NCBI GenBank assembly: GCA_046314355.1
Contig: JBKBWQ010000001.1
Location: forward strand, 823,115-863,114
Length of the DNA: 40,000 nt
Source: Candidatus Altimarinota bacterium
Lineage (GTDB): Bacteria > Patescibacteriota > Gracilibacteria > 1-14-2-50-48-13
Direction of reading: 5' to 3'
The translations under genes and the position numbers were made by a program. Every line of letters starts with the position of its first letter. The first letter of the stretch is position 1. The notes below the pieces were generated by a model that was not told the origin of the DNA, searched no databases, and saw only the letters and a program-made list of their open reading frames with translations. This document shows positions 4,547-38,739 of the stretch, piece by piece.

Positions 4547-4577
4547 GTCTGACAATATACTTGTCAGACTTTTTTTA
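4547..4577 (+). terminator. rho-independent terminator
   Basis: GTCTGACAA-TATAC-TTGTCAGAC followed by TTTTTTT. Confidence 0.75.
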
Positions 4578-4583
4578 CGTACA

Positions 4584-5089
4584 GGAAACCCCGGAGCTAG
4601 TGTATGGTACAATCCCCTCATGAGAATTCAAAACTATCCCATAGCACGTACCAACACTTATATCACCTCGTGTGGGGTACGAAATACCGTAGAAGGTATT
4701 TGAAGCCCTACGTGAAAGAGGAGCTTTTAGCATGGTTAAACAAAGAATTTAAGAAGTACCCTACACTCCATTTGGATGTAGTAAATGTTGATGAAGATCA
4801 TATTCATCTTCAAGTAGAGATTCCGCCGAATGTGTTGGTAAGTCGAGTGGTACTTGAAGAGTGGTTCGAGTAGGGTGCTGATCAAGAAGTTTCCGTTTAT
4901 TCGGCGGATGTATGTAGAAAACAGCATCTGGAGTGTAGAATATTTCTCATCCACCGTAGGGCTGAATGAGGAGATAGTTAGAAAGTACATCGAACAACAG
5001 GGCGCTCACGAGTACCCAGAGGAAACGAGTTTTTGAGTGCTCATGATGCCCGGAGGGAAACCCCGGAGCTAGCGTAGCGTACTCCGGGG
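4584..5089 (+). mobile_element. IS200/IS605-family element remnant (tnpA only)
   Basis: The Y1 transposase gene is flanked by the same 21-mer GGAAACCCCGGAGCTAG(T/C)GTA at 4584-4604 and 5056-5076. The right end forms the hairpin CCCCGGAG-N13-CTCCGGGG (5061-5089). Confidence 0.55.
4604..5036 (+). pseudogene. tnpA: IS200-type HUH/Y1 transposase TnpA, frameshifted
   Basis: YHLVWGTKYRR, HUH motif HIHLQV, and C-terminal SVEYFSSTVG..VRKYIEQQ with the catalytic Tyr. The frame changes at about 4853 (..VSRVV | c | LKSGSSR..), so the N and C halves lie in frames 2 and 0. Confidence 0.75.
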
Positions 5090-5186
5090 AGGAAGTCCTT
5101 TGTGTTAAGTGAACACTGGACATTCATACTTGAAAGTACAGCCAAAATATTGATATACTACCTATATCAATATTCTATACTAATCT

Positions 5187-23233: not shown

Positions 23234-25633
23234 TTATAAAGCTCCCATTCGAAACCTGATCTCCTGATCAACAAATTCTCTTTGTCGCCCGTACTTCAGA
23301 CGTGAGAGCTGTCGATAGGCATCTGCTGCCTCCTTATCAAAGTCGTATCCCTGCATTGTGAAATGTCTCTGCACATCAAAGTTGAACGGACGGGATGGAG
23401 TCAAATTAATACTAAGTTTCATGATTGCCTTAAATTCATCCTGATTTGAAATATCCTGTTCTGAAAATACCGGAGCAAAGATCTTTGCCATAAATTCCGC
23501 ATCCACTTCACCAGTTTTATACGCAAGGATATTACCCACGTTACCGAATATGGCACCTTTCAATGAAGTACTACCTGATATATCTTTCTTCTCAAGCTGA
23601 TCCATATACTGATGTGCAAGACAGAGACTTACACGATATTTTCGTGCTTCAGAAAGAATAGATTCGATAGAGTCCGTCACAAAGTTCTGGAACTCATCCA
23701 CATACACAAAGAATTCTCTTCGGTCTTTCTTTTCAATCTTCTGTCTTCTCATAGCAGATACTTGTAGCTTTGAAATAAGAATCATACCAAGTAGTTGTGC
23801 ATTCAAGTCACCTATAAGACCTTTTGATAAACGGCAAAGTATGATTTTTCCATCCTGCATAGCCTGGAACATATCAAAGGATGATTTTGCCTGACCAAGG
23901 ATATTCCGGATAGTGGAGTTGGTAGTAAACTGACCAAATTTCGCTGCAAAATACGGGATCATTTCCTGTTTTTCTCTATCACCCATACCATCAAAAGTAT
24001 TATCCCACCATGATTTTACAATTGGATTTACCACATAAGAACGCATCTTTTTCTGAAAATCCTGATTTACGAAAAGACCAAGCACGTCAATAATAGTACC
24101 TCCTTCAGGAGCAGCCATAAGGGTCAGTACTCCATTTCGGAAGTAGTCCTGGATACGCGGACCAAACACTTCGTTACCGAAGAGCTTGATCATCATATTC
24201 ATCGCATCTAATGCCACTAGTTCTTTCTCATCATCCCCTTCTGCCTCAAGCATATTCAGTCCAAGCGGCCGCTCAGTATCAGATGGATCAAAGATGATAA
24301 CATCGTCCGCACGTTCTCGAGGGATAAATCCGATAAAATCATCCGCCAGTTCTCCATGAGGATCCATCATCATCATCCCCTCACCTTTTCGTACACTTTG
24401 TTTCATCATGGTTTGAAGAATCGTACTTTTACCAGTACCAGTTTGTCCAATAATATAGAAATGTCTAAATCTATCTTCCTGTTTAATACGGACCTCTTTT
24501 CGAGATCCCCGGTAATTCACATGACCAAGCAGAATACCATCTTCCGGAAGATTATCTGGTGGAGCCGACATCTTGGATTTTTGCCACTTGATCGCAGGAG
24601 ATCTATTGAACTTGATATGAGGAAAATGAAAGAGACTCGCGATTTCGTCCGTAGAGAGGATGACTTTTGGCTCCTTCCAGTAATCCTTTTCAAAAAGACG
24701 GTAAATAGCATGAGTAAGTATTCTTCGGGACTTTGCCTTCTTTATCTTTGTAATAGAGTTCATCCGCGGATGACTAAACTGTACAAAAGAACTCACTATG
24801 CTCTGCAGCTGATTTTTAGCCTGAAAAGCTGTAGGAGCTGAAGTTAGCACACGGATATGCGCCTCAAATCCTACTTTAAATGATTTTTGTTCTACAGATT
24901 TTGCCGTCTCTTCCGTCAGAGGAGAAAGACGTTTGTTCTCATCCTTCTTCGGCTGCGGGTTCATGATCTTCCAGAATTCATCCCAGATACTCTTGATAGT
25001 CAATTTATCTTTCTTCTTATCATTCAAAATATTCTCCGCAAGCTTTTTGGATTCATCCTGCCATTTATCAGCCACAGGTTTTAAAAGTATCTGAATCATT
25101 GCCCCCTCATCCGGACCAATTTTGGAGAGTGAGTTAGTAATATTATTTAAAGGATCAGACTCAAGCTGTGCATATGTTTTAAGCGGATATGTATATTCTT
25201 TTTTTAAAGTAAGGCTGCACGCCTCCTGCACTCCGTTCTCCTGAAAAATATTATAATCCTCCTCTATCTCAACAATAGCATCAGGATAAAAACTCGTAAT
25301 CTGCTTTTCAATAAGCTGCTGCAGCTCCCCAGGAACCACCACATAAAAATACACCTGCGTCTTCAATACCGCATATTCAAAGGAAACATAGTTTTCGCTT
25401 CCTATCTCATGAAGCGAAGCAAGCAGCTGCTCCATCACGGACACCACATCCTTAAAAGGAAGATTCGACTGAGAGTCTTTCTTTTCATCAAGATCAGACT
25501 CTTTTATCGGCAGTATTACTCGCATAAAACTCAAAGAAAGCGCCTTCTCAAGCACCTTTTTCCTACGGTTATCCCTCTTGTACCAGAGATACGCACCTAC
25601 GACTATAATAAGAACAAGAAGAAGTTCTACCAT
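23234..25633 (-). CDS. type IV secretion coupling-protein-like ATPase (VirD4/TraG/TraD; HerA/DUF87-like P-loop)
   Basis: N-terminal TM helix. Walker A IIGQTGTGKST, Walker B-like FFVYVDEFQNF, and the MDPHGE segment common in these ATPases. Confidence 0.7.
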   Translation of the reverse strand: MVELLLVLIIVVGAYLWYKRDNRRKKVLEKALSLSFMRVILPIKESDLDEKKDSQSNLPFKDVVSVMEQLLASLHEIGSENYVSFEYAVLKTQVYFYVVVPGELQQLIEKQITSFYPDAIVEIEEDYNIFQENGVQEACSLTLKKEYTYPLKTYAQLESDPLNNITNSLSKIGPDEGAMIQILLKPVADKWQDESKKLAENILNDKKKDKLTIKSIWDEFWKIMNPQPKKDENKRLSPLTEETAKSVEQKSFKVGFEAHIRVLTSAPTAFQAKNQLQSIVSSFVQFSHPRMNSITKIKKAKSRRILTHAIYRLFEKDYWKEPKVILSTDEIASLFHFPHIKFNRSPAIKWQKSKMSAPPDNLPEDGILLGHVNYRGSRKEVRIKQEDRFRHFYIIGQTGTGKSTILQTMMKQSVRKGEGMMMMDPHGELADDFIGFIPRERADDVIIFDPSDTERPLGLNMLEAEGDDEKELVALDAMNMMIKLFGNEVFGPRIQDYFRNGVLTLMAAPEGGTIIDVLGLFVNQDFQKKMRSYVVNPIVKSWWDNTFDGMGDREKQEMIPYFAAKFGQFTTNSTIRNILGQAKSSFDMFQAMQDGKIILCRLSKGLIGDLNAQLLGMILISKLQVSAMRRQKIEKKDRREFFVYVDEFQNFVTDSIESILSEARKYRVSLCLAHQYMDQLEKKDISGSTSLKGAIFGNVGNILAYKTGEVDAEFMAKIFAPVFSEQDISNQDEFKAIMKLSINLTPSRPFNFDVQRHFTMQGYDFDKEAADAYRQLSRLKYGRQREFVDQEIRFRMGAL

Positions 25634-25661
25634 GAAATCTTAAGAAATAGCATACATATAC

Positions 25662-25690
25662 ATTGTAACGTGAGTACAGACGCAATGCAA
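25662..25690 (-). promoter_or_regulatory. candidate promoter of the ATPase gene
   Basis: The minus strand reads TTGCAT-17 nt-TACAAT, about 30 nt upstream of the ATG at 25633. Confidence 0.45.
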
Positions 25691-25872
25691 GTAGTCTAAT
25701 GAGGAGTGTAACTCAAGTGGTAGCATCTCCGAAACGTTTGTATTTGGAGACCCCTCCCGCAGCTCATATCTCCGCAGCTTAAGATAAAGAATAACTCTGC
25801 AGGATGACGCGCTCCCTATCCTTATTATGTACCACAGAGATATTGCCATCTCTAGAAGCGAGAGAATCGCAC

Positions 25873-26309
25873 CGAATGATGAGAGTCTCCGGGCTCCAAC
25901 CCCCTGTGTCCCCCTTCTCAGGGGGATAGCTCATAGGCTCCCTAACCCGAGTCCTGACATGTACGGCAGGTACATCGCCTGGCTGCGTAGTGGACTAGTA
26001 ACTAGTGACGGTCACTAGTTACTAGTCACTCGAGCCCTCATCTAGACCACGCCGTCCCTGGGGGTTTGGGGGAGGAGAAGCGTCTGATTACTTTTAGAAA
26101 GCAACCTCTCTGCCAGACGCTTTTCTCCTCCCCCAAGACTTTTGGTTACTTTTGGTCACAAAAGTGACGCCCCACCGGCAGGTGAAGAAGAAACCACTTA
26201 CTTCATCAAGCACCCTTCACCTCACTCAAACCTTTATCTCTTATAAGAGGATTTGTGAAAACTATAAGAACACTAGTTGAATAAACCAATATCCGACAAT
26301 GGATTCCCG
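25873..26309. repeat. copy 1 (core) of an unclassified GC-rich hairpin-dense element; candidate structured ncRNA or ORF-less mobile element
   Basis: About 95% identical by eye to 37400-37837 in the same orientation. No ORF is conserved between the copies. Contains a 35-bp perfect palindrome (25993-26027), a 19-bp stem (26068-26134) and several further helices. Weaker similarity extends to about 25722 and 26375. Confidence 0.85.
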
Positions 26310-26433
26310 CCGGAGTTTATGCTGGTGCAGATCAGTACGGGAATGACAGACATTTGATCACAAAAGTAACAAAGCTTTTGATTCTTTACCGAAAAGAATA
26401 TATCCTCTCACTGTATATTTTTTCCAGTTTTCC

Positions 26434-27549
26434 ATGAGAATCGGTATAGATGCCCGCATGTACAGCCCTAAGTTTACAGGTATCGGACGTTATAATTATG
26501 AGCTTATCAACCACCTTTTTGAGATAGATAAAGAAAACACCTATGTCATCTTCATGAACGAACCTGAATACTCAGAGTTCACCTTTTCAGCGAAAAATGT
26601 CGAAAAAATCTGTGCGGGAGCAAAGTATTATTCACTCGGCGAACAGCTAAGCTTTATGAAGAAGCTCTATCAGGCACGTCTTGATGTCATGCACTTCACA
26701 CACTTCAATAATGCCCTGCTCTACTTTAAAAAGCAGACAGTAACCATCCATGATCTTACACTTTCTTTCTTTCCCGGAAAAAAGATGACAAAGTGGTATC
26801 ATAGAGTTGCTTACTTCTTAAGCGTATGGGGAGTTACAAAGAAAGCATACCGGATCATAGCAATCTCAGAGAATACAAAAAACGATCTTATAAAAGTACT
26901 CAGGGTTCCAGAGAAAAAAATTACAGTGGTTACAGAAGGAGCTTCGCAGGATTTTTCAAAAATCACTGACAAGATGAGATTAAGTGAAACAAAGAAAAGA
27001 CTTGGGCTTTCACGTCCTTTCTTTTTATATACAGGAGTATGGAGAGATCATAAGAATCTCGTTGGTCTTATAAAGGCATTTCATAAGCTCACTCTTTCAA
27101 AGGACTTTGATGCAGATCTCGTCATCACTGGACGCCATGATCCTGTCTATACAGAAGTAAAAGACACCGTTCAAGAACTGCACCTTGAAGACAGAGTCAA
27201 ACTCGTAGGAATGGTCTCAGAGGGAGATCTCACTGCTCTCTATTCCCTTGCTACTCTTTATACTTTTCCATCATTCTATGAAGGATTTGGTCTTACTATC
27301 TTAGAAGCCTTCGCGGCAGAACTTCCCGTAGCCTGCTCAAATACATCCAGTCTTCCAGAAGTTGGGGGAGATGCTGTTATCTATTTCGATCCTTATTCCA
27401 TAGATGATATGGCTGAAAAAATAGGCATGTTATATGATGACAAAGAACTTCAGAAGGAGCTCATTCTCAAAGGAAAAAAACAACTCTCTGTATTTTCATG
27501 GGAAGATATGACAAAAAAGATACATGATATTTATCTAATGAAAAACTAA
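26434..27549 (+). CDS. family-4 (GT-B) glycosyltransferase
   Basis: EGFGLTILEAFAAELPVACSNTSSLPEVGGDA, the EX7E-type GT4 C-terminal signature. Confidence 0.85.
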   Translation: MRIGIDARMYSPKFTGIGRYNYELINHLFEIDKENTYVIFMNEPEYSEFTFSAKNVEKICAGAKYYSLGEQLSFMKKLYQARLDVMHFTHFNNALLYFKKQTVTIHDLTLSFFPGKKMTKWYHRVAYFLSVWGVTKKAYRIIAISENTKNDLIKVLRVPEKKITVVTEGASQDFSKITDKMRLSETKKRLGLSRPFFLYTGVWRDHKNLVGLIKAFHKLTLSKDFDADLVITGRHDPVYTEVKDTVQELHLEDRVKLVGMVSEGDLTALYSLATLYTFPSFYEGFGLTILEAFAAELPVACSNTSSLPEVGGDAVIYFDPYSIDDMAEKIGMLYDDKELQKELILKGKKQLSVFSWEDMTKKIHDIYLMKN

Positions 27550-27557
27550 TACCCACT

Positions 27558-27866
27558 ATGGCTTTTACTCCTCTTTCCTCTTTAATACTCAGGTCCGCAA
27601 AAAAATATAAGGTAGAGGATTCAGCAAAGGCTTCTCTTGTTATTAAAACAGCAAAAACTCTCGTGGGTGAAATTTTTTCAAAAGTAACCTCTTCACCAGA
27701 GAACCTTATTACCAGAATATTCTTTGACCGCGATATGCTCACTATCTGCGTAGCCAATGCAAGCGTATGCCAGGAGCTACATATGAGACAGGACGACCTT
27801 ATGGCTGACATTAATAAAACGCTCCCTTTTCCTTGGGTAAAAAAGATAAAGATCAAAATCTTTTAA
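27558..27866 (+). CDS. DUF721/DciA-like small protein
   Basis: Size and pattern (..LVGEIF..T.P..L....L.ICVANASVCQEL.....DLMADINKTL....VKKIKIKI) resemble DUF721. Recognised by pattern only. Confidence 0.45.
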   Translation: MAFTPLSSLILRSAKKYKVEDSAKASLVIKTAKTLVGEIFSKVTSSPENLITRIFFDRDMLTICVANASVCQELHMRQDDLMADINKTLPFPWVKKIKIKIF

Positions 27867-27949
27867 AAAGTCCTTTGTAACTCTTGCGGGTTTTGAAAGC
27901 ATCTGATAGAATTAGTTGATACATAACTTTTATTCGTTACCTTTTGTTT

Positions 27950-28372
27950 ATGTACAATTCCATTTCTTCATTTTTTAAGAAGCTAGCAGTAGGCGCAGGT
28001 GCACTTTACGCAGCTGCAACTCTTTCCCTGGTTCCTGTACTTGCAATAGGTTCAACAAATTTTGGTGTTGATAATGCCAAGGGACTGAACGTACAGGATG
28101 GTTCACTCCTTGATAACGTGACTAACATTATTAATACTGTCTTCCTTCTTCTTGGAATAGTGGCAGTAGGATTTATTGTATGGTCTGGTATCAGCATCAT
28201 TACTTCTAAGGATAATGAGGAGAAGCTTAAAAAAGCTCAGAAGTACCTTATCAATGCAGTTATCGGTTTCGTTCTCATTGCACTTTCATGGACAATTGTG
28301 AGCTTTATCATCGCTGCAATCAATAGTGGTGAAAGTGGTTCTGAGGAATTCCAGACAGAACAGCTTTCATAA
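27950..28372 (+). CDS. TrbC/VirB2-like type IV secretion pilin (CPR type)
   Basis: Signal peptide, then two hydrophobic helices around the loop SKDNEEKLKKAQKY. Start placed at ATG 27950 rather than TTG 27944. Confidence 0.7.
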   Translation: MYNSISSFFKKLAVGAGALYAAATLSLVPVLAIGSTNFGVDNAKGLNVQDGSLLDNVTNIINTVFLLLGIVAVGFIVWSGISIITSKDNEEKLKKAQKYLINAVIGFVLIALSWTIVSFIIAAINSGESGSEEFQTEQLS

Positions 28373-28384
28373 GTTCTCTAAGTT

Positions 28385-28421
28385 AAAAAAACACCTTTGC
28401 ATAAAGCAAAGGTGTTTTTTT
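28385..28421. terminator. bidirectional rho-independent terminator
   Basis: A-run, ACACCTTTGC-ATAAA-GCAAAGGTGT, then T-run, between the convergent pilin and flippase genes. Confidence 0.8.
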
Positions 28422-28422
28422 A

Positions 28423-29952
28423 TTATCTTTTTAGCTTACGGAGCATCTCTTTATCTACGACACGAAGCGCTATCAGTAGTAATAGATACGTAGTTCCTCC
28501 AATCATTAATGCTATAAGCATAGCTGGGTATTTTCCCATAGTGCTGAACAGAGGTCCTTCCAGGTATTTCAGCAAGACCGCCATACTCACAGCTGCAAGA
28601 GCTATCTTTAGGAATTTTCCGGCACGGAGATGAAACTCTAAGCCCTTTCTTGCATAATAGTAAGTCATCACTAGTACAATAATTTCAGAAATTACAGTAA
28701 TAATAGCCGCAGCCTTTACTCCCCAAATTGGTATACAGATAATGTTTGCCACCACATTAAGTACAAGCGTAGTGCAGTTTACAATTATAAGTTTTTTCTG
28801 ATTATCCTGAGCAATCAGCAGAAAGTTAAATAAGAGATTGAGAAAGGAGAAAACTATCGTAAAAATCAAAATCTGCAGATAAATGTCTGATCCTACAAAT
28901 CCTGTCTGTAAGTTGGAAATGTAAGCATCAGAATTTGTTACCCGTATAACCTCACGGGACAGAGCCCATCCTCCGGCTACAATCGGTGCCGACATCAAAA
29001 AGAGAAAATCAAAGGAGTATTGAATCATGGCGGAGACATCCTTACTCTTTGTTTTGATACTCTCACTCAGAGCTGGTAGCAGTGCATTGAGAAAGAATAA
29101 AGGAAGAATCGTAAAAATCTCTATTACTTTAATTGGTGCAGAATAAAGAGCCAGCTCCTCTGCTACGATTTCCTTTGGAAGAAAGAAATAGAGTAGAAGT
29201 GCATCTATCTTAAAATAGAGAGTCGCAAGTACAAGTGCAAACCCATAAGGCAAAGATTCCTTTATGATCCGTTTCCAAAACTCCCAGTTGAAAAGAAAAC
29301 GTATCCTGACATATGCACTAGCCACATGTCTTGTATAAAAAAACATCACTATATTCCCTATGACTCCTGCCAAAAATAAAGCCTGAAAACCTAAAAATGT
29401 CGTATCTGCTGCATATCCCGGAGAGGGTTTTGCATATAATAGAAAGATGGAAATACAAAATATACTTACGATCACAATTTTGCCCACCACTTGAGCAATA
29501 GTTGCATGGAGCATGTCATATTCTACTTGCAGCACACTCGTAAGAGCACCTGTAAGCAGAGCAAAAATAGTAGAAATACCAGCTAGTCCCAAGGCAATCA
29601 GGAACATCACTCCCCATCCTTTTTGAAAAGCAGGTACAAAAGAAATCACAAGAAGTGAAGCAACTACTACTAATATGCTCAGCACTAATCGTATACTTAA
29701 AATATTACCAATAGTCTCCTCCATTTTTTCCTTATTCTTCGCAAGCTCCCTGATTGCGATCGTATAGAGACCAAGGTCAGCAGCAATACCAGCAAATCCA
29801 AGAAACATATATGCAAACTCATACATACCTCTCTCTGCCTTGGTAAGATAGCTTGCAAGAAGCACAGAAGTAATGAGGCTAAAAAAGCCGACGCCTACTT
29901 TTCCGACGACTTGTATAAATGTATTTGAAAGAATCTTGCGGGCTGTGGACAT
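28423..29952 (-). CDS. MOP-superfamily polysaccharide/oligosaccharide flippase (Wzx/MurJ-like)
   Basis: 509 aa with about 14 TM helices. N-terminal KILSNTFIQVVGKV..GMYEFAYMF pattern typical of Wzx-type flippases. Confidence 0.75.
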   Translation of the reverse strand: MSTARKILSNTFIQVVGKVGVGFFSLITSVLLASYLTKAERGMYEFAYMFLGFAGIAADLGLYTIAIRELAKNKEKMEETIGNILSIRLVLSILVVVASLLVISFVPAFQKGWGVMFLIALGLAGISTIFALLTGALTSVLQVEYDMLHATIAQVVGKIVIVSIFCISIFLLYAKPSPGYAADTTFLGFQALFLAGVIGNIVMFFYTRHVASAYVRIRFLFNWEFWKRIIKESLPYGFALVLATLYFKIDALLLYFFLPKEIVAEELALYSAPIKVIEIFTILPLFFLNALLPALSESIKTKSKDVSAMIQYSFDFLFLMSAPIVAGGWALSREVIRVTNSDAYISNLQTGFVGSDIYLQILIFTIVFSFLNLLFNFLLIAQDNQKKLIIVNCTTLVLNVVANIICIPIWGVKAAAIITVISEIIVLVMTYYYARKGLEFHLRAGKFLKIALAAVSMAVLLKYLEGPLFSTMGKYPAMLIALMIGGTTYLLLLIALRVVDKEMLRKLKR

Positions 29953-30049
29953 GAGAAATTTGGGAACAAGAAATACTCTGTCATTCTAGGAAAATTATCC
30001 GAAGACAGCAAGCATAGTTACAAATGAGAATGGATCCAACCAAACAAAA

Positions 30050-30376
30050 TTACGCGACTAACTGAATTCTAATACCATCCGGACCGTCAACCATGTCTCC
30101 TTTATAAATCTTATAACCCATATTCTCTAATCGTAGTTTTATACCTTCTATATCATCTACATTCAGTGCAATATGATTGATAGTCTGCGTAGTATTGTCA
30201 CCTGAAAAAAGTGCAAATACCTGAGTCCCTGCACTCATGAAGTATTCATCTCCATAATCTCCCTTCTCTTCCAATCCCAATCCCTCAATAAAAAACTTTT
30301 TTCCTTCCGCCATGTGAGATACATATACAGCGATGTGATCTATTCCAGTTACTTTAGACATCTTATAACACGACAA
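30050..30376 (-). CDS. VOC-family (glyoxalase/bleomycin-resistance fold) protein
   Basis: IDHIAVYVSHMAEGKKFFIEGLGL and INHIALNVDDIEG: a paired beta-alpha-beta-beta-beta module signature. Confidence 0.8.
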   Translation of the reverse strand: MSCYKMSKVTGIDHIAVYVSHMAEGKKFFIEGLGLEEKGDYGDEYFMSAGTQVFALFSGDNTTQTINHIALNVDDIEGIKLRLENMGYKIYKGDMVDGPDGIRIQLVA

Positions 30377-30486
30377 TAAATAGTTTTTCTTATTTTTCTA
30401 CAAAAGAATTAATAATGAGAATTGAGAATAAAGCATCATGAGCCTACCCTTAATTACTAATTACTCCCTTACTCAATTACCTGAGC

Positions 30487-31101
30487 TTAAAACTTCCTTA
30501 TCAAATACCTCACTACTCCCTGAATCTCCAGTTCATGTATTGCATGGATATCAGGATACTGAGCATTCTCAGCCTTTAAATACATAACTCCTGAAGGTTC
30601 CTTCATAAGTCGCTTTAGAGTATTTTCCCCATCCACAAGCCCTACTACAATATCTCCCGGAAAGCCTTGAGTTCTTTCAACGATGACAGTATCTCCTTCA
30701 AATATTCCCGCATCTATCATACTTTCTCCCCGCACAGTAAGTGCATAGATATCATTTTTAGTACCTAAAAATGATACATCAAACGGTATATACCCCTCTA
30801 TATAATCCGAAAGATCCTGAGGATTTCCTGCAGGAATATTTCCAAAAAGCGGAACCTGCAGCATCGTGCTGTCTAGCTTTTGTCTTACTTTATCAAAGAG
30901 AGCAATACCTCTTGCTGTATTATCTCTTTTTATAAATCCTTTCTTCTCAAGAGCACGTAAGTGTTTGATAACTCCATTTACACTTTTAATCTCAAAAGCC
31001 TCCTGGATCTCCGCAATCTTTGGAGAATAGCCGTTCTTTAATTGGTACGTTTCAATAAAATCAAGGATCGTTGCCTGCCTGGAAGTAAGTCCTGTAGACA
31101 T
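30487..31101 (-). CDS. lexA: LexA repressor
   Basis: N-terminal winged-HTH (LTSRQATILDFI..GYSPKIAEIQ). Likely Ala-Gly cleavage site (NIPAGNP). S24 peptidase motifs GESM and KRL. Start placed at the ATG at 31101. Confidence 0.9.
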   Translation of the reverse strand: MSTGLTSRQATILDFIETYQLKNGYSPKIAEIQEAFEIKSVNGVIKHLRALEKKGFIKRDNTARGIALFDKVRQKLDSTMLQVPLFGNIPAGNPQDLSDYIEGYIPFDVSFLGTKNDIYALTVRGESMIDAGIFEGDTVIVERTQGFPGDIVVGLVDGENTLKRLMKEPSGVMYLKAENAQYPDIHAIHELEIQGVVRYLIRKF

Positions 31102-31133
31102 AAGAATTGTTGGAAACAATATAGGTTACTTAA

Positions 31134-31162
31134 ATAGTAGTGATAATATGTTCACTAGTCAA
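31134..31162 (-). promoter_or_regulatory. candidate lexA promoter
   Basis: The minus strand reads TTGACT-17 nt-TACTAT, ending about 30 nt upstream of the lexA ATG. Confidence 0.5.
31138..31157. promoter_or_regulatory. candidate LexA operator (SOS box) in the lexA promoter spacer
   Basis: Inverted repeat TAGTGA-N8-TCACTA. The minus strand contains GAACATATTATC, a degenerate GAAC-N4-GTTC Cheo-type box. Confidence 0.4.
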
Positions 31163-31312
31163 GGGAAGAAGGAAAAAGTAATTAAGTAATTGAGGAAGAA
31201 AGTAATTAAGTAATTGGGCTCAATAACTGGGCTCGGTAATTGGCTGCAATTATTGAGCTCAATTATTCGAGCCTAATAATGTGCGCCTAATGATAGAAGC
31301 CCAATTACTCTT
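31161..31312. repeat. C-free AGTAATTAAGTAATTG duplication followed by about 8 degenerate ~14-bp tandem units
   Basis: AGTAATTAAGTAATTG at 31177-31192 and 31201-31216. Then GGGCTCAATAACT / GGGCTCGGTAATT / GGCTGCAATTATT / GAGCTCAATTATTC / GAGCCTAATAATGT / GCGCCTAATGATAGA / AGCCCAATTACTC. Confidence 0.65.
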
Positions 31313-31424
31313 CCCCCTCCCTCTGCTCAAAAAAATTTAAAAATTTTACTAAACTCCATGGACCCTATATACTATTTTAAATTACAAAAGAGTCTCCATA
31401 TCTGCCTTTTACCCTACCTTATCC

Positions 31425-31673
31425 ATGTTTCTGATCCAGGTGTGTATCATAGTTATCCAGATATTTCTTTTTGTACTCTTCATGAGAGTGATGCTTTCAT
31501 GGCTTCCTATACCGTCCATTGAAAAGGTTGTACGTATTTTAGGTGATATCGTTGATCCTGTACTGCAGCCTTTTCAAAAGATTATCCCGCCTATTGGTGG
31601 AATCGATCTGACGCCGATGATCATTTTTTTCCTGCTTTCTCTTCTTGAGCAATATCTCTTTTCACTCCTGTAG
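31425..31673 (+). CDS. yggT: YggT-family membrane protein
   Basis: 82 aa, two TM helices; MRVMLSWLP..DLTPMIIFFLL is a typical YggT pattern. Confidence 0.8.
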   Translation: MFLIQVCIIVIQIFLFVLFMRVMLSWLPIPSIEKVVRILGDIVDPVLQPFQKIIPPIGGIDLTPMIIFFLLSLLEQYLFSLL

Positions 31674-31676
31674 AAT

Positions 31677-33764
31677 ATGCACAAAGACCACATTGCTTTC
31701 CTCTCCCCGGAAGATAGTATTGAACATCTCGCAAGCGATAGTACCTTTGGTCTAGCAGAACGTGAAGCACTCCTTCGCAAAAAAGAATACGGCACCAACG
31801 AACTGCCTAAGATTACTCTGCAGGAGCTTTTAAGTGAATTCACTTCTCCGTTTTTTCCTTTTTTGATATTCCTCGCTGGTATTACTTTTTATTTTACACG
31901 AAGCATATTCACTTTCTGCTTTCTCCTGCTTTTTGCATTTATACATCAGGGTGCTCTTCTTATTCTTTATAGAAAAATAATTACGAGATATTTTGAAAAA
32001 TATCAGTTTTTTGAAAATACTTTTCCAGAATATGTACATACGGTACGAGGTAATCATATAAAAGATATCCCGACAGCATATAGCGTTCCGGGAGACATTA
32101 TTTATGTAGAGGCTGGAGATTCAATTGGCGCTGATATTAGAATCCTCTCAACTTCTCACCTTACAGTAGATGAGAGTATTTTGTTTGGTCCTATGCATGC
32201 ATGCAGCAAAAAAACTGCAAAAGAACTCAAAGACCGTTTTAGAAATCCTCTCTCTGAAAATATTCTTCTTGCCGGCTCTTATATTCTTGAGGGAAGCGCA
32301 AAAGGTATAGTCTGGCATACAGGAAAAGATAGATACCTTCAGCAGCTTTACTTTCCTAAAAAGCAGGATATCTGGAAGAATAGACTTTACTCCTCTGTTG
32401 CACTGGTCTATTGGACTCTCTTGATGCTCCTGACAGGACTTACACTAGGCAAACTCCTTGAGCCGTATCTTTGGACATATATTGGCATAACTTTAGGACT
32501 ACTTGTGCCAGTGGCATACCCGCTTGCACTATTACCTGCTCAGGATTCTCTTAAAAAGTCTATTCCAAATGGTATGCTTGCTCAGGTTGAAACATATATT
32601 GAACCTGCTATCTCTGATACAAAGGTCTTCCTACAGGGACAGGAGATTGATCTCAGCAGCCACAGTGATGTAAAGAAACATAAGAGCCTTGTTGAGAACT
32701 TCTTCGAACTCTTCTTTCTAGCTGTCCCTGAAGAGGTGAAGAAAGAACAGCTCACAGAACTTAGATCTCTTGAAAGCTTTGTACAGAGGACTTGTAAGAT
32801 GAGCCTTGATTCCCTTCCAAATCTTGAGAAGAACTCTACTCTTTCAAGATTCTCTTTTGATATTCATAAAAATGAGTGCTTTGGAAAAACAGTATACATT
32901 AATACACGACCTGAAGATGGTCTCGGAGAAAAGGATTTTCTCTTTGATACAGATCCTATTATTACATTAATATTCTCTGATCCCGCTGCTCTTTTAAAGG
33001 ATGCTACATATATTTCTGATGAGAATATGCAGCTTATGAAAAGAAGGTTTTTTAAAGGAGAAAAAGAAAAGCTTGAAAAACACATCAAGGACCTTGAGCA
33101 AAAAGGATATCTACTCTATGCAGTGGGCGTAGAGGAAACATTGATGAAGACGAAACAAAGACATGAGACCACAGCAACTTTCGTAGGCTACGTGATGATC
33201 CCGTGGAGGTTTAAGCCTCATGGAGAAATGGCACTCAATAATCTCCAAAATCATAATAGCCATCTTTGGCTGTTTAGTTTCAGATCCTTTTCACCATCTT
33301 TTCTAGCAGAGACATTCTCTGTGCCTATGAAAGATATTATGGAAAGTGAAGATCTCATGCATAAAAGCGAACAGTTCAAAAAGCAGCTTTCTCAAATGCC
33401 TTTTAGGGTATTCCATAAGATGGAGCTCGAAGATATCATTACTCTTTCAAAGATCCTGAAAAAACACCGTGAAGCTCCTGTCATCACACCTCTCTGGGAA
33501 AAGGAACTAGGGGAGTTTCTCCTCCCTGATACAGCTTTTACCTCTGCACCAAAGCTCTCGCGCGCACGGGATCATATACTTGCCTCTGAACAAAAAAAGA
33601 AGCAGGTACAGCAGCTCTCTCTTTGGTACTCATGGATATTGGCTCTTTCAGGAGCAGAACTACTTCCCTATATACTTCAGACTGAGTATCTCTATCTTCT
33701 TTTCATCCTGCCCTTTATTCCCGTCTTATTGATTATACTCTTTTGGACAAAGCGGTCAGCTTGA
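31677..33764 (+). CDS. P-type ATPase homologue with degenerate catalytic motifs
   Basis: Cation-ATPase N-terminal segment (GLAEREALLRKKEYGTNELP). Actuator-domain pattern (VPGDIIYVEAGDSIGADIRIL..VDESILFG). TGES, DKTGT, TGD and GDGxND are not conserved. Ends in TGA. Confidence 0.65.
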   Translation: MHKDHIAFLSPEDSIEHLASDSTFGLAEREALLRKKEYGTNELPKITLQELLSEFTSPFFPFLIFLAGITFYFTRSIFTFCFLLLFAFIHQGALLILYRKIITRYFEKYQFFENTFPEYVHTVRGNHIKDIPTAYSVPGDIIYVEAGDSIGADIRILSTSHLTVDESILFGPMHACSKKTAKELKDRFRNPLSENILLAGSYILEGSAKGIVWHTGKDRYLQQLYFPKKQDIWKNRLYSSVALVYWTLLMLLTGLTLGKLLEPYLWTYIGITLGLLVPVAYPLALLPAQDSLKKSIPNGMLAQVETYIEPAISDTKVFLQGQEIDLSSHSDVKKHKSLVENFFELFFLAVPEEVKKEQLTELRSLESFVQRTCKMSLDSLPNLEKNSTLSRFSFDIHKNECFGKTVYINTRPEDGLGEKDFLFDTDPIITLIFSDPAALLKDATYISDENMQLMKRRFFKGEKEKLEKHIKDLEQKGYLLYAVGVEETLMKTKQRHETTATFVGYVMIPWRFKPHGEMALNNLQNHNSHLWLFSFRSFSPSFLAETFSVPMKDIMESEDLMHKSEQFKKQLSQMPFRVFHKMELEDIITLSKILKKHREAPVITPLWEKELGEFLLPDTAFTSAPKLSRARDHILASEQKKKQVQQLSLWYSWILALSGAELLPYILQTEYLYLLFILPFIPVLLIILFWTKRSA

Positions 33765-33765
33765 G

Positions 33766-34827
33766 TTAAGCATCATTTCCTACAGTATATACAAGCAGCG
33801 GTGACACACCCATAATTTTCTCTGGCGTATCCAGAATCTTCTCAGGCTTTCTCTCTGCCACATAGTATGCAGCAGCACCTATCATCGCAGCATTATCTGT
33901 GGAATAGAGCTTTTTCATAGGAAAGAATATCTGCTCTTCCTGAAAGCCATGCTTGTGAGCATGCGTAAGCATATACTCCTTTAAAGCATTATTTGCTGAT
34001 ACTCCTCCTGAAACACAGACAGACTGTGCATTCATGTATTTTGCTGCATCAAAAAGCTTTTCTGCGAGCACTTCCACTACACTTTCCTGGAATGCTGCAG
34101 CAATATCTATCCGTTCTTCCACAGTAAAGGTACCTTCATCCTTGAGAAGCTGGACATGACGCTTTACATCACTCTTGAGTCCGCTAAAACTAAAATGGTG
34201 ATTTCCCTTCTGTTTTAGTGCGCGAGGCAGGTGACGCCGAATAGAGAGCCCCTCTGATTCTTTCAAAAACTTTTCTATAGCTGGTCCTCCAGGATATCCC
34301 AGTTCTAATATGCGCGCTACCTTATCAAAAGCTTCACCAGCAGCATCATCTAGAGAATGACCTATAAGCTCATATGAAAAGAAATCTTTCATATAATAGA
34401 GATCATTATGACCTCCTGAGACAGTAAGCACCACCAATGGAAACTTAATCTCATCCTTATCTCTTTCAAGCCAGTTTGCGTAAATATGCCCTTCAATATG
34501 ATGGACAGGTATAAGGGGCTTTCCTAAGAAGAGAGCAAGGGTCTGAGCTGTAGAAATCCCCACTATGAGTGAGCCTAAAAGTCCAGGTCCCTGTGTCATG
34601 GCAATAGCATCTATATTTTGAAATCCTCCAATAGCCTCTCCCATAGCACGGAGAGATGGAATCGCTTGTCTTACATGTTCCCGCGCGGCAACCTCAGGTA
34701 CTACTCCTCCTGTGACAGCATGGAGATCAGCCTGAGAAAATACATGACAGGATTCTACATCAGTACCATCTTTTACTACTGCCCATGACATATCGTCGCA
34801 GGAGGACTCTACAGCAAGTATTCTCAT
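33766..34827 (-). CDS. tsaD: tRNA N6-adenosine threonylcarbamoyltransferase TsaD
   Basis: MRILAVESSCDD, VHHIEGH, SGGHN, GVSAN: full-length TsaD/Kae1 similarity. Confidence 0.93.
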   Translation of the reverse strand: MRILAVESSCDDMSWAVVKDGTDVESCHVFSQADLHAVTGGVVPEVAAREHVRQAIPSLRAMGEAIGGFQNIDAIAMTQGPGLLGSLIVGISTAQTLALFLGKPLIPVHHIEGHIYANWLERDKDEIKFPLVVLTVSGGHNDLYYMKDFFSYELIGHSLDDAAGEAFDKVARILELGYPGGPAIEKFLKESEGLSIRRHLPRALKQKGNHHFSFSGLKSDVKRHVQLLKDEGTFTVEERIDIAAAFQESVVEVLAEKLFDAAKYMNAQSVCVSGGVSANNALKEYMLTHAHKHGFQEEQIFFPMKKLYSTDNAAMIGAAAYYVAERKPEKILDTPEKIMGVSPLLVYTVGNDA

Positions 34828-34882
34828 AAGTGTATATTTACAATGTATTCAGGTTATACCCTTTTTAAGATATGACAGCAAC

Positions 34883-34919
34883 AAAAAAAATACCCCCCGC
34901 GTCGAACGCGGTTAGGGTA
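34883..34919 (-). terminator. rho-independent terminator of the LysM/M23 gene
   Basis: On the minus strand, TACCCTAACCGCG-TTCGA-CGCGGGGGGTA hairpin followed by T8. Confidence 0.7.
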
Positions 34920-34935
34920 TTTTTTATTTATTTTC

Positions 34936-36069
34936 TTATAGGTATGAAAGTGGATTCATACGTACATTGTTCTTGATAACCTCGAAGTGAAGATGAAGTC
35001 CTGTTCTACCATATGATCGTCCAGTGTTACCCATCCAACCAATAGTTTCTCCAGCACTTACCTGCTGACCTGGAGTTACGTAGAGTTCTTTCATATGCGC
35101 ATAGAGCGTTCGGAGACCGTCACCGTGATCAATAATGATCATATTTCCGTATCCTCCGTTATAACCTCCTTGTGCTTTAATTACTTTACCTCCCTTAGCG
35201 GCCACGATACCTGTAGTATGATTTCCCTTTGTATAACAGATGTCGATGGCAGGATGTCCTGAATGAAATTTCTGTGTAATCACAGGGCTTGCAGTAGGCC
35301 ATCTAAGAGATAGTCCCTGCTCTGTTGGCTCACTAGTTTTAGGTGTTGTCTTCTTTGCAGCAGCCGTAGTAGTCTTCTTCGCTGTTACAGCTACAGTTGC
35401 TGTAGTTTTCTTCGGAGTCGTCTGAGCTACATTTGCAGCAACTGTTGGAGCTGGAGTAGTATCTGCAACAATAGTCGGTTTTACATCACTAAGCTTAAGT
35501 CCTGGAAGGATAAGCTGTGATCCCTTAAGTACAGCTGCATCATCAGAAAGTTCATTCTGATTGGCAATAATAACTGGATCTAGACTATATTTCTTTGCTA
35601 TTTCAGCAACATTCGTATCATTATCTATAGTATAGAGTACTCCATCTACAGGAAGCACCTTCAGTGTCTGACCTTCCTTAATCATAGATGTAGCTTTCAA
35701 TCCGTTTGCTCCTATAAGAGTCTCCGTAGAGATACCATAACGTGCAGCAATTCCTCCTAGAGTATCGCCACCCTTTACCGTATATTCCACAAGATTATTG
35801 GATGTAATTCGTCCGGCATCATCTGTTCCTAAGATAGGATTAGAAAGAATACCGTCTTCACCAACATATACAGAGTCAAAGTTCTTAGCAAGTTCATCAA
35901 TGTCATCTGCCTGCATGGAAATATACATTCCATCTCCATCAAATACAGGAGTAGCAGCAGTACCTACCGCAGCGAAGCTTGGTAAAATACTTGCAGAGCC
36001 AAAAAATACAACCATTACAAGGGACAGTATTCTCTTTCGGAGATTTCCATGGGAGAACACGACATGCAT
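34936..36069 (-). CDS. secreted LysM-domain M23 peptidase
   Basis: Signal peptide. Two LysM repeats (YTVKGGDTLGGIAARYGIS, YTIDNDTNVAEIAKKYSLD). T/A/K-rich linker. M23 motifs HPAIDI and GLHLHFEV. Confidence 0.85.
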   Translation of the reverse strand: MHVVFSHGNLRKRILSLVMVVFFGSASILPSFAAVGTAATPVFDGDGMYISMQADDIDELAKNFDSVYVGEDGILSNPILGTDDAGRITSNNLVEYTVKGGDTLGGIAARYGISTETLIGANGLKATSMIKEGQTLKVLPVDGVLYTIDNDTNVAEIAKKYSLDPVIIANQNELSDDAAVLKGSQLILPGLKLSDVKPTIVADTTPAPTVAANVAQTTPKKTTATVAVTAKKTTTAAAKKTTPKTSEPTEQGLSLRWPTASPVITQKFHSGHPAIDICYTKGNHTTGIVAAKGGKVIKAQGGYNGGYGNMIIIDHGDGLRTLYAHMKELYVTPGQQVSAGETIGWMGNTGRSYGRTGLHLHFEVIKNNVRMNPLSYL

Positions 36070-36447
36070 AGATGAGTATGCATATTCAAAAAATGAAAAA
36101 AGTGAGGTGTGGGAACGGGATTTAAGTTCTGTTAAATGTTCTTCTCTTAAGCTTAGTTTCTGATGTCTTCGTTTTTGTGCTAGTTTGTTCGATCTGGTTC
36201 CTATGGTCGACTCCTTTATTAGATATAACTATCATACGGTATACGTCTGTGAAGCTCGTAACTTCCACCTGTATGAGAGTTATTTTACTCATACAAATGC
36301 AGATTTAGGGGGAATCCCCTGCGTATAGTGATAGCGGCAGACAGCGCCAAATGAATAAATTGTGTTCAAAAAATGAACAGTTCGAAAGGGATTATAATGA
36401 AAATGATCAGACTACACAATAGACAATATTAAAAAATTATTGTCTAA

Positions 36448-37011
36448 TTATTCATTATCGCGCGAAAGGTACTCTCCTGTTCGCGTGTCAACTTTCACTT
36501 TCTCTCCTTCCTTAATGAAAAGCGGAACCTGTACAACTAGACCTGTACTAAGCGTAGCAGGTTTTGATCCTCCTGTTGCATTGTCTCCTTTCACTCCTGG
36601 AACTGTTTCCATTACTTCAAAAGACATGCTTGGAGAAAGAAGAATTGCAATAGGCCGTTCTCCAAAAAACTGCACATCCACATCAGATCCTTCAATAAGA
36701 TAGTCCTTTGCATCTCCAATCTCATCTTCACCCATCTGAAACTGCTCATACGTATTGCCGTTCATGAATTCAAACGCATCTCCAGTCTTATAGAGAAACT
36801 GTGCCTTTGAATATCCTACATCTGCAGGCTTTACCTTATCTCCAGACTTATATGTCTTTTCAATAATTGATCCTGTTACAAGATTTTTAAGCTTTGTGTT
36901 CATCATACCTGCCTGTCGCGCTACCTTGATATGCTGATACTCAACTACCTGATATGGTACACCATCAATATCTACACATACGCCTTTTTTCAGATCGCTA
37001 ATTTGATACAT
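36448..37011 (-). CDS. efp: elongation factor P
   Basis: Full-length EF-P similarity (GGSKPATLSTGLVVQVPLFI, VKVDTRTGEYLSR). Start at the ATG at 37011 (MYQISDLKKG). Confidence 0.92.
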   Translation of the reverse strand: MYQISDLKKGVCVDIDGVPYQVVEYQHIKVARQAGMMNTKLKNLVTGSIIEKTYKSGDKVKPADVGYSKAQFLYKTGDAFEFMNGNTYEQFQMGEDEIGDAKDYLIEGSDVDVQFFGERPIAILLSPSMSFEVMETVPGVKGDNATGGSKPATLSTGLVVQVPLFIKEGEKVKVDTRTGEYLSRDNE

Positions 37012-37040
37012 AAACCTTTCATGAATTATAAAACATTGAA

Positions 37041-37068
37041 ATTGTAGCCAATAGAAAGTACTTGGCAA
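37041..37068 (-). promoter_or_regulatory. candidate efp promoter
   Basis: The minus strand reads TTGCCA-16 nt-TACAAT, about 30 nt upstream of the efp ATG. Confidence 0.45.
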
Positions 37069-37124
37069 GGGAAAGGAGGAAGTAGTTGAGTAAAAGAGTA
37101 AGAGAGTAATTAAGTAAGAGGGGG
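37067..37124. repeat. C-free purine-rich module homologous to 31161-31218
   Basis: AAGGGAAAGGAGGAAGTAGTTGAGTAAAAGAGTAAGAGAGTAATTAAGTAAGAGGGGG against AAGGGAAGAAGGAAAAAGTAATTAAGTAATTGAGGAAGAAAGTAATTAAGTAATTGGG. Both abut the -35 box of a minus-strand promoter. Confidence 0.6.
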
Positions 37125-37399
37125 AGACTCAGGGTGACTGGTGAGAGTGTGGGTAACTTGTTACTAGTTTGGCTCTAAGGATAGGAATGAGGATGAGGGG
37201 TAAGAATTAGGGTAGATTCAAGTCATAGCACTGCCGAAACTTATGTATCTGGATGCTGCAGTTGTAATCTTGCGAAGAAAATAAAGGATTACCATCAACA
37301 TGAAGTAAGTTCCTTTGATTACGACTGTGCACTGGAGCCCGTTGGGCAATCCTTTATGGCTAAAGAAATATCCTTTGAACGGGATGACGCTCACGCGAG

Positions 37400-37837
37400 C
37401 GAAATGATGAGAGTCTCAGGGCTCAACCCCCTGGGTCCCCCTTCTCAGGGGGATAGCTCATAGGCTCCCCCTCCCCGAGCCCTGACATGTACCGCAGGTA
37501 CATCGCCTGGCTACGTAGTGGACTAGTAACTAGTGACGGTCACTAGTTACTAGTCACTCGAGCCCTCATCTAGACCGCACCGTCCCTGGGGGTTTGGGGG
37601 AGGAGAAGCATCTAATTACTCTTAGAAAGCACCCCCTCTGCCAGACGCTTTTCTCCTCCCCCAAGACTTTTGGTTACTTTTGGTCACAAAAGTAACGCCC
37701 CACAGGCAGGTGAAGAAGAAACCACTTACTTCATCAAGCACCCTTCACCTCACTCAAACCTTTATCTCTTATAAGAGGATTTGTGAAAACTATAAGAACA
37801 CTAGTTGAATAAACCAATACCCGACAATGGATTCCCG
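37400..37837. repeat. copy 2 (core) of the unclassified GC-rich hairpin-dense element
   Basis: About 95% identical by eye to 25873-26309. Identical 35-bp palindrome at 37521-37555. Weaker similarity extends to about 37217 and 37875. Confidence 0.85.
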
Positions 37838-37867
37838 TCTGCACGGTAATGACGGGATTTTTGTCAC

Positions 37868-37899
37868 AAAAAAAGCCCTTCCACCGGCAAGGTGGAAAG
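37868..37899 (-). terminator. rho-independent terminator of the lipoprotein gene
   Basis: On the minus strand, TTCCACC-N5-GGTGGAA hairpin followed by T7-8. It directly abuts the right edge of repeat copy 2. Confidence 0.75.
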
Positions 37900-37923
37900 A
37901 CTTTTAAGATCTCAATACTCATA

Positions 37924-38613
37924 TTATCTTCTCCTTATAGTCTTTCTCGGAGTTGTAGTAGTTTTCTTTGGAGTAGTAGTCTTCTTAATAGTAGGGCTTG
38001 CAGCCTTCGCTTTACTCTGAGTCACAGCCTGAGATAACCCTGAGCTCTTCTGTGCAGCATCAGTCTTCACCTGAGAGAGTGAATTCTTATCAATAGGTCT
38101 AGAGTACTCACTAGCAGTTCGCGCAGGAGGCATAGCGTATGATCTTCCAAAGATAGCATTCGCGATCATTCCGCCAACGATAGCTCCACCTACTGATGTG
38201 AGAAAAGTTTGGAGAAAAGGAGAAGTACCCCCCTGCTCTACCTTTTGTACCTCCTCATCAACTTTTGCCTTCAATTCATCAGGCGTCATAGTCTGGAATT
38301 CAGGCACAAGCTTTTGACTATAGTTGTATACAGCGAGTGTAGAACCACTTGCTGTTCCACATACCTGATATGCAGACATGATCTCATCATGATTCTTGGT
38401 AGCAGAACAATCTGTGTTTAGTTTAGCAACACTCTCAGCACATTTATACGTACCAGCTGTATCAGTACATTGCATAACACTACATGGTCCTTTCCCAGAT
38501 TCACACATCTGAGCATAGAGATTTGTAAGATCAGGGGTCTCAGCAGTAGATGTGCTACTTCCGCATGACGTTAAAAGAAAAAGAGCTGTAAGACTTAAAA
38601 ATATTTTTTTCAT
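37924..38613 (-). CDS. lipoprotein with Cys-rich N-terminal half, glycine-zipper segment and basic T/K-rich tail
   Basis: MKKIFLSLTALFLLTSC lipobox (start at the ATG at 38613). GGAIVGGMIANAIFG. C-terminal KKTTTPKKTTTTPRKTIRRR. Confidence 0.6.
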   Translation of the reverse strand: MKKIFLSLTALFLLTSCGSSTSTAETPDLTNLYAQMCESGKGPCSVMQCTDTAGTYKCAESVAKLNTDCSATKNHDEIMSAYQVCGTASGSTLAVYNYSQKLVPEFQTMTPDELKAKVDEEVQKVEQGGTSPFLQTFLTSVGGAIVGGMIANAIFGRSYAMPPARTASEYSRPIDKNSLSQVKTDAAQKSSGLSQAVTQSKAKAASPTIKKTTTPKKTTTTPRKTIRRR

Positions 38614-38739
38614 ATATGAGTTTTTCATTAGCAAATACATTTCATACTAGTGAACGTAAAAATAAACACTTTGTTACTTAATCGTAGTTTTTTAGGTTGC
38701 ACAATAAGACAGTCCTTTTAATACCCTACTTACAGTTTT

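Follow-up and report, generated by a model that had tools for sequence, protein, structure and literature searches.

Several kinds of repeated or structured non-coding sequence described in bacteria resemble the locus analyzed here. PATEs, which are non-autonomous IS200/IS605 elements, and REP/BIME sequences are non-coding and hairpin-rich, carry neither terminal inverted repeats (TIR) nor target-site duplications (TSD), and lie in intergenic regions after a terminator-type hairpin and T-run, all of which they share with the element described below. MITEs are likewise non-autonomous, non-coding and repeated, and resemble it in their strain-specific presence or absence and in their strong secondary structure. 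Group IIC introns insert just after intrinsic terminators; the element is also located directly downstream of one, and by this likeness a large structured RNA would be expected. OLE, ROOL, GOLLD and the HEARO/IscB omega-RNA are, like the element, about 600 nt long, with an intricate predicted structure and variable hairpin tips, and large ornate bacterial non-coding RNAs (ncRNAs) are sometimes multi-copy or mobile (HEARO). To our knowledge, almost no non-coding RNAs are known from the phylum to which the present genome belongs.

The locus lies in a 40,000-nt stretch of the genome of a Candidatus Altimarinota bacterium, referred to here as the window. A repeat search and blastn revealed a core pair, 25875-26309 and 37403-37837, with 95.4% identity over 436 columns. 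The core is 435 nt long, the two cores are in direct orientation with a spacing of 11,528 nt, and they differ by 18 substitutions and 2 single-base indels. Weaker homology outside the core stretched the unit to 25713-26361 (649 nt) and 37218-37867 (650 nt), and the extent of 37217-37875 proposed for copy 2 in the initial annotation agrees with this measurement. The two copies and the features bordering copy 2 are as follows.

25713-26361, minus strand: copy 1 of the element (649 nt), flanked by the VirD4-like gene (minus, start at 25633) and the glycosyltransferase gene (plus, start at 26434).
25875-26309, no strand assigned: copy 1 core, from the repeat comparison with the copy 2 core.
37041-37068, minus strand: efp promoter TTGCCA-16-TACAAT, which lies downstream of the element and is also kept in relatives that lack it.
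37218-37867, minus strand (a label that follows the convention of the initial annotation only): copy 2 of the element, 650 nt, delimited by homology with copy 1; missing from the orthologous lipoprotein-efp spacer of the relative L083.
37403-37837, no strand assigned: copy 2 core, 95.4% identical to the copy 1 core.
37868-37905, minus strand: intrinsic terminator of the lipoprotein gene (hairpin 37876-37899, seven-T run 37868-37874), abutting the element; two Rfam leader models align it as a terminator stem.

The core boundaries were sharp, with 95% identity in the core and about 60% in the poorly alignable flanks, consistent with the greater divergence of the flanks described previously. The left ends (25713-25748 and 37218-37253) were 78% identical, and the entire left flank gave 115 matches between the copies compared with 101.6 ± 3.3 in shuffles. 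Between the end hairpin and the core, a short GGATGACGC island was common to both copies; the stretches between the end hairpin and this island were non-homologous (~55 vs 135 nt), followed by a hairpin of ~70 vs 14 nt. CGCTC-ACGC-GAGCG in copy 2 corresponded to an insert of roughly 70 nt in copy 1. To the right of the core, the ATTCCCG/CGGGAAT arms were kept; the loop between them measured 27 nt in copy 1 and was short in copy 2. The length differences between the copies in the flanks fell at hairpin tips, as the initial annotation had observed. Such tip-confined length variation, together with conserved islands between variable hairpins, fits a structured RNA family better than a simple DNA repeat. 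The total lengths of the copies (649 vs 650 nt) were nearly equal although three internal segments differ by +80, -56 and -22 nt, which may be a coincidence or a length constraint. The G+C content of the element was 0.48-0.50, compared with 0.386 for the window.

Folding z-scores against dinucleotide shuffles were -7.2 for the plus strand and -6.0 for the minus strand, and the following internal parts were distinguished in copy 2.

37218-37253, no strand assigned: conserved 36-nt end hairpin (TCAAGT..TAGCA..CCGAAAC..TGTAT.TGGA), the counterpart of 25713-25748 in copy 1.
37521-37555, no strand assigned: perfect palindrome of 17+17 bp whose arms are 1 nt apart (GACTAGTAACTAGTGAC-G-GTCACTAGTTACTAGTC), holding four ACTAGT sites and identical in copy 1 at 25993-26027.
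37594-37664, no strand assigned: long stem of about 19 bp (TTGGGGGAGGAGAAGC..GCTTTTCTCCTCCCCCAA), holding two G-to-A differences between the copies.
37673-37715, minus strand: internal hairpin followed by GTTAC-TTTT-GTGACC, terminator-like on the minus strand in both copies.

GTNAC occurred 9-10 times in the element, compared with 2.5 expected, and many of the hairpins were GTNAC-based. The stretch at 37673-37715 resembled the outer junction of copy 2 (lipoprotein terminator, TTTTTTT and GTGAC) and that of copy 1 (GTTACTTTTGTGATC); a junction-like hairpin with GTTAC-TTTT-GTGACC recurs about 180-200 nt inside the element.

No third copy of the element was found within the window. In a Logan assembly of the same strain (SRR31360860), an 11,203-nt contig was 100% identical to window 26262-37464 and ended inside both copies, as expected from a two-copy repeat, providing independent support for the repeat. 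The adjoining contigs of the same strain were unbroken over 31.7 kb to the right of copy 2 and over 23 kb up to window 4599, indicating that about 82 kb of examined genome holds these two copies and no others.

The element showed no sign of coding capacity. No meaningful ORF was conserved between the copies, and no ORF had homologues; the six-frame concatenated translation of the core had no match among 5.8 billion proteins, and none of ten small element ORFs was present by exact look-up in a 15-billion-sequence collection. Code 25 (UGA = Gly) was considered on account of the Gracilibacteria label and rejected, as the long table-11 ORFs of the window are intact and TGA is used as a stop; the stop codons of the window (TAA 25, TAG 8, TGA 3) fit the standard code, and TGA read-through opened no long ORF in the element. 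Rfam gave no match at the gathering threshold over the whole window, and for either copy at E <= 10 only miRNA-type hairpin and terminator-like matches, with nothing for group I/II introns, RNase P, tmRNA or 6S; ARAGORN detected no tRNA or tmRNA. No element homologue was found in phage and plasmid records (distant blastn) or in IMG/VR with five exact patterns, where one 21-mer match inside a phage gene was due to chance. A 22-base pattern had no match among GTDB representatives, and two patterns, the second built from motifs in common with L083, gave only three high-GC chance matches in JGI metagenomes. A template/variable repeat pair of a DGR was considered in view of several A/G differences and rejected, since the copies differ by changes of several kinds and lie outside coding sequence. 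Nor did readings as an IS91-like element, an oriT or an att site find support.

Four related genomes were reached through EF-P homologues (EF-P at least 87% identical); an EF-P protein search of GTDB returned only relatives at <= 46% identity. In L083 (ERR5524024), EF-P was 94% and DNA about 80% identical and the gene order lipoprotein-efp-M23-tsaD was the same, whereas the lipoprotein-efp spacer measured 195 nt compared with 912 nt here; the efp promoter TTGCCA-16-TACAAT was kept. Upstream of efp, L084-86 carried a SLAC1-family gene and L087 carried RecQ, while in L096 the NUDIX stop codon lay 13 nt before the same efp promoter, all without the element. The efp promoter was kept in 4 of 4 aligned relative loci that lack the element. 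At the other site, L093 had a 386-aa gene in the place of copy 1 between the VirD4-like and glycosyltransferase genes. Relatives, to which the initial annotation had looked for further copies, yielded none: nhmmer found no element-alignable sequence in 1.27 Mb of fetched loci. As the relatives are only about 80% identical in DNA, these empty sites show gain or loss, not recent movement. The absence of the element from the orthologous site in every sampled relative indicates that it behaves as an insertion, not as a conserved RNA gene or leader.

The native stretch GAGCC..ACTAGTRAC..GTTAC..TCAC in L083 corresponded to window 37135-37185, beside the element. An inverted "mini-element" in the L083 spacer was considered and rejected, as it aligns as the ortholog of this native stretch in the same orientation relative to efp. 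Both copies also lie at synteny breakpoints relative to more distant relatives (25634-26433 vs L093 4161-5525; 37012-37923 vs L087 and L084), where the 386-aa gene takes the place of copy 1 and RecQ or the SLAC1-family gene that of the lipoprotein gene.

The spacer between efp and the M23 gene (36070-36447, read in the minus-strand sense) served as an internal control. It was conserved in 5 of 5 genomes, with flanking genes at about 77-80% DNA identity, and contained the invariant blocks TTCATTTGGCGCTGTCTGCCGC, GGTTATAT, AAGGAG and GCACAAAAACGAAGACATCAGAAA, a promoter-like TTGTGT-17-TATAAT, and T-runs ahead of the M23 start. RNAalifold predicted 53 pairs, 16 of them with compensatory changes, and Rfam gave no family at E <= 10 except a weak csRNA-like match on the promoter part. 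We regard this spacer, which precedes the LysM/M23 peptidase gene, as a candidate for a conserved leader or ncRNA belonging to that cell-wall hydrolase gene. Since it is constrained across all five genomes, a constrained RNA at the syntenic site of the element would have been seen. The contrast shows how constrained RNA appears in this clade, and on this comparison the element does not behave like one.

Read on the minus strand, both copies begin after a hairpin and T-run, as previously annotated: the GTGAC of copy 2 at 37867-37863 directly follows the seven-T run of the terminator (TTTTTTT|GTGAC), and copy 1 begins TTTT|GTGATC after an AT-rich hairpin. No terminal inverted repeats link the two element ends. 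No target-site duplication was present, and the junctions differ (GGGCTTTTTTT|..|ATCTACCC and GTTACTTTT|..|GTTACACTCC); a possible GTTAC duplication was seen at copy 1 alone. The MITE reading is unsupported for these reasons, and the element is also larger than most bacterial MITEs.

A frameshifted IS200-like tnpA was present at about 4620-5040 (Y1_Tnp E = 1.1e-25 after joining two frames), and the IS200-like element starts exactly at the T-run of the terminator 4548-4576. The presence in the window of a Y1 (IS200-like) transposase gene at a site of this kind is a further likeness to PATEs. The two copies follow TTTT and the IS200-like element also lies at a T-run, and terminator T-runs therefore look like insertion sites in this genome, although two sites cannot define a target. 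A same-strain Logan contig breaks at 4599, the left edge of the IS200-like element, suggesting more IS copies elsewhere in the genome. The IS200-like element (plus strand) is contained in window 4570-5100 and carries GGAAACCCCGGAGCTAG at both ends (4584-4610 and 5056-5082).

The element differs from PATEs in other respects. Local alignment of its ends to the resident IS200-like element scored 22-23, compared with 21.7 ± 2.2 by chance; hairpins are present near both of its ends but are unlike each other, and its orientation is opposite to that of the IS200-like element. With these end, hairpin and orientation differences, we do not assign it to the IS200/IS605-derived class. At 650 nt it is also several times longer than typical REP/BIME or PATE units, and only two copies of it are known. 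No transposase, reverse transcriptase or integrase gene adjoins it, and the window contains only the defective tnpA.

Our tentative reading, with a probability of roughly 0.45, is that this sequence of about 650 bp is a non-coding and non-autonomous repeat or insertion element, specific to this lineage and located at a terminator-type site. In its favour are the two copies, the empty orthologous site in relatives, the lack of an ORF, the sharp core within module-like flanks, the foreign-looking G+C content and the hairpin and T-run ahead of each copy. According to this reading, it would have been gained by this genome after the split from the nearest sampled relatives, by insertion probably targeted to hairpin/T-run (terminator-type) sites, and later duplicated or homogenised between two intergenic sites. 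As an IS200-family element occupies the same kind of site, a trans-acting enzyme for hairpinned single-stranded DNA or RNA would be the likeliest machinery. The dense palindromes may be recognition or structural features of the element itself, not regulators of efp, and the mosaic of 95% core and about 60% flanks may reflect recombination or gene conversion among family members. The small copy number, the lack of TIR, TSD or an adjoining mobilising gene, ends unlike those of the resident IS, an orientation opposite to it, and the RNA-like confinement of length variation to hairpin tips all speak against an insertion element.

A rather unlikely alternative is a new large structured ncRNA expressed from the minus strand by two paralogous genes, perhaps itself mobile. 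The very strong predicted folding, the G+C enrichment in an AT-rich genome, and the hairpin tips of variable length between conserved islands are consistent with this alternative. The consensus fold was more stable on the minus strand, which is the G+T-rich strand (-175.6 vs -154 kcal/mol), although relative to composition (dinucleotide shuffles) both strands fold about equally unusually. As the initial annotation had pointed out, G26082/G26086 in copy 1 become A37610/A37614 in the long stem of copy 2, giving A-C mismatches on the plus strand and G-U pairs absorbed by the minus strand. The substitution G26166 to A37694 is likewise present, but the strand preference drawn from it was ambiguous, because two overlapping hairpins fit opposite strands: on the plus strand, the 10-bp hairpin GTTACTTTTG/CAAAAGTRAC accommodates the change as a U-G pair, and on the minus strand it is accommodated by the 5-bp hairpin GTYAC-TTTT-GTGAC. 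The difference between GAGTCC and GAGCCC, already listed as a counter-example, favours the plus strand. When the 18 core substitutions of these only two sequences were mapped onto single-copy MFE structures, 9 pairs were kept and 10 broken on the minus strand, compared with 4 kept and 12 broken on the plus strand. The lean toward the minus strand was not significant (Fisher P = 0.29), and whichever strand is considered, roughly half of the substitutions in helices disrupt pairing. The earlier call of a minus-strand RNA was statistically unsupported. One compensatory pair was found between the copies, in the flanks.

Further results weigh against an ncRNA. A consensus-based scan of both strands did not find a promoter and a terminator at opposite ends of the element that the two copies have in common. 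Copy 2 immediately follows a strong terminator, and no promoter intervenes. The perfect 17-bp palindrome with its 1-nt spacer is unlike an RNA hairpin loop. Moreover, the element is missing at syntenic sites in four relatives while the nearby RNA-like efp-M23 leader is kept, and it matched no Rfam family even at E <= 10.

The copies are unlikely to stem from one segmental duplication of an intergenic sequence whose core later underwent gene conversion, with neither mobility nor function involved. Such an origin would account for the presence of only two copies in direct orientation 11.5 kb apart, for the lack of TIR, TSD or an associated enzyme, and for the sharp boundaries of the 95%-identity core, which fit a conversion tract. 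However, the flanks hold non-homologous modules (55 vs 135 and 70 vs 14 nt) while islands and hairpin bases are kept, a module-like arrangement that plain duplication and drift do not predict. The G+C content 10 points above that of the genome, and the fact that both copies abut a T-run with the same GTGAY start, also argue against it.

We consider it improbable that the element is a DNA-level protein-binding module, for example with the ACTAGT-rich palindrome as an operator-like or recombination site near T4SS/cell-envelope genes. The perfect 35-nt palindrome identical in both copies and the excess of GTNAC (9-10 vs 2.5 expected) are in keeping with such a module, as are the related ACTAGTRAC..GTTAC motifs native upstream of efp in the window and in L083 and the GTAACTAGTAAC motif upstream of the VirD4-like gene in L093. 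In opposition to this, no candidate binding protein is known, 650 nt far exceeds the needs of an operator, the motif similarity is short, and the element is dispensable in relatives.

Equally improbable is that the element represents the first case of a new large (about 650 nt) class of mobile structured RNA in Gracilibacteria/CPR-like bacteria. Such an RNA would target the T-run that follows hairpin terminators, using either reverse splicing or an HUH-type single-strand mechanism; catalysis or recognition would reside in the ornate core, and the RNA could do without its variable hairpins. Compared with OLE, ROOL, GOLLD and HEARO, the element lacks a covariance-model match at E <= 10, an associated protein gene and conservation in relatives. 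Should it prove to be a transcribed mobile RNA, it would represent a new class of large structured RNAs. The reading as a group IIC intron that is degenerate and ORF-less is close to refuted. Consistent with it are the location immediately 3' of a terminator hairpin and T-run, a 5' end that begins GUGA on the minus strand, and a size that fits ORF-less introns, but neither copy matched Intron_gpII (domains V/VI) or group-II-D1D4 at E <= 10, the 5' end is GUGAC/GUGAU and not GUGYG, the 3' end hairpin was not domain-V-like when read by eye, and no reverse transcriptase is present in the window.

The initial annotation had copy 2 filling the gap between the lipoprotein terminator and the efp promoter; it does abut the terminator, but about 149 nt plus the efp promoter (37068-37041) separate it from efp. 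It had also placed both copies upstream of minus-strand genes. This holds for efp and the VirD4-like gene, but the intergenic region of copy 1 is divergent, and that copy is also upstream of the plus-strand glycosyltransferase gene; a promoter-like TTGCAT-17-TACAAT was read by eye between copy 1 and the VirD4-like gene. The gene-upstream position carries little weight, as the efp promoter is downstream of the element and is kept in four relatives without it. The effects of the element on the host are incidental under the insertion-element reading: the stretch separating the lipoprotein gene from the efp promoter would gain a long spacer and one more terminator-like hairpin, and 11.5 kb would come to be bracketed by a 435-bp direct repeat.

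If the element is nothing more than a strain-specific repeat, its interest is mainly practical: short-read assemblies of this lineage break at both copies, and terminator T-runs stand out as hot spots of insertion in a very small genome. The suggestion that the direct copies form a recombination substrate around core genes also holds, and the 435-bp direct repeats around 11.5 kb (lexA, tsaD, efp) could drive amplification or rearrangement.

The gene adjoining copy 2 (37924-38640) encodes a 238-aa lipoprotein with no Pfam match. It is missing in L096 (6160-6680), where the NUDIX gene abuts the efp promoter, indicating that the lipoprotein-plus-element stretch is variable in the clade. Purine-rich short repeats of the GTAATTAAGTAA type were observed at 31161-31218 and 37073-37122, upstream of lexA and efp, and are about 80% alike; the efp-side repeat is an insertion of ~41 nt relative to L083.
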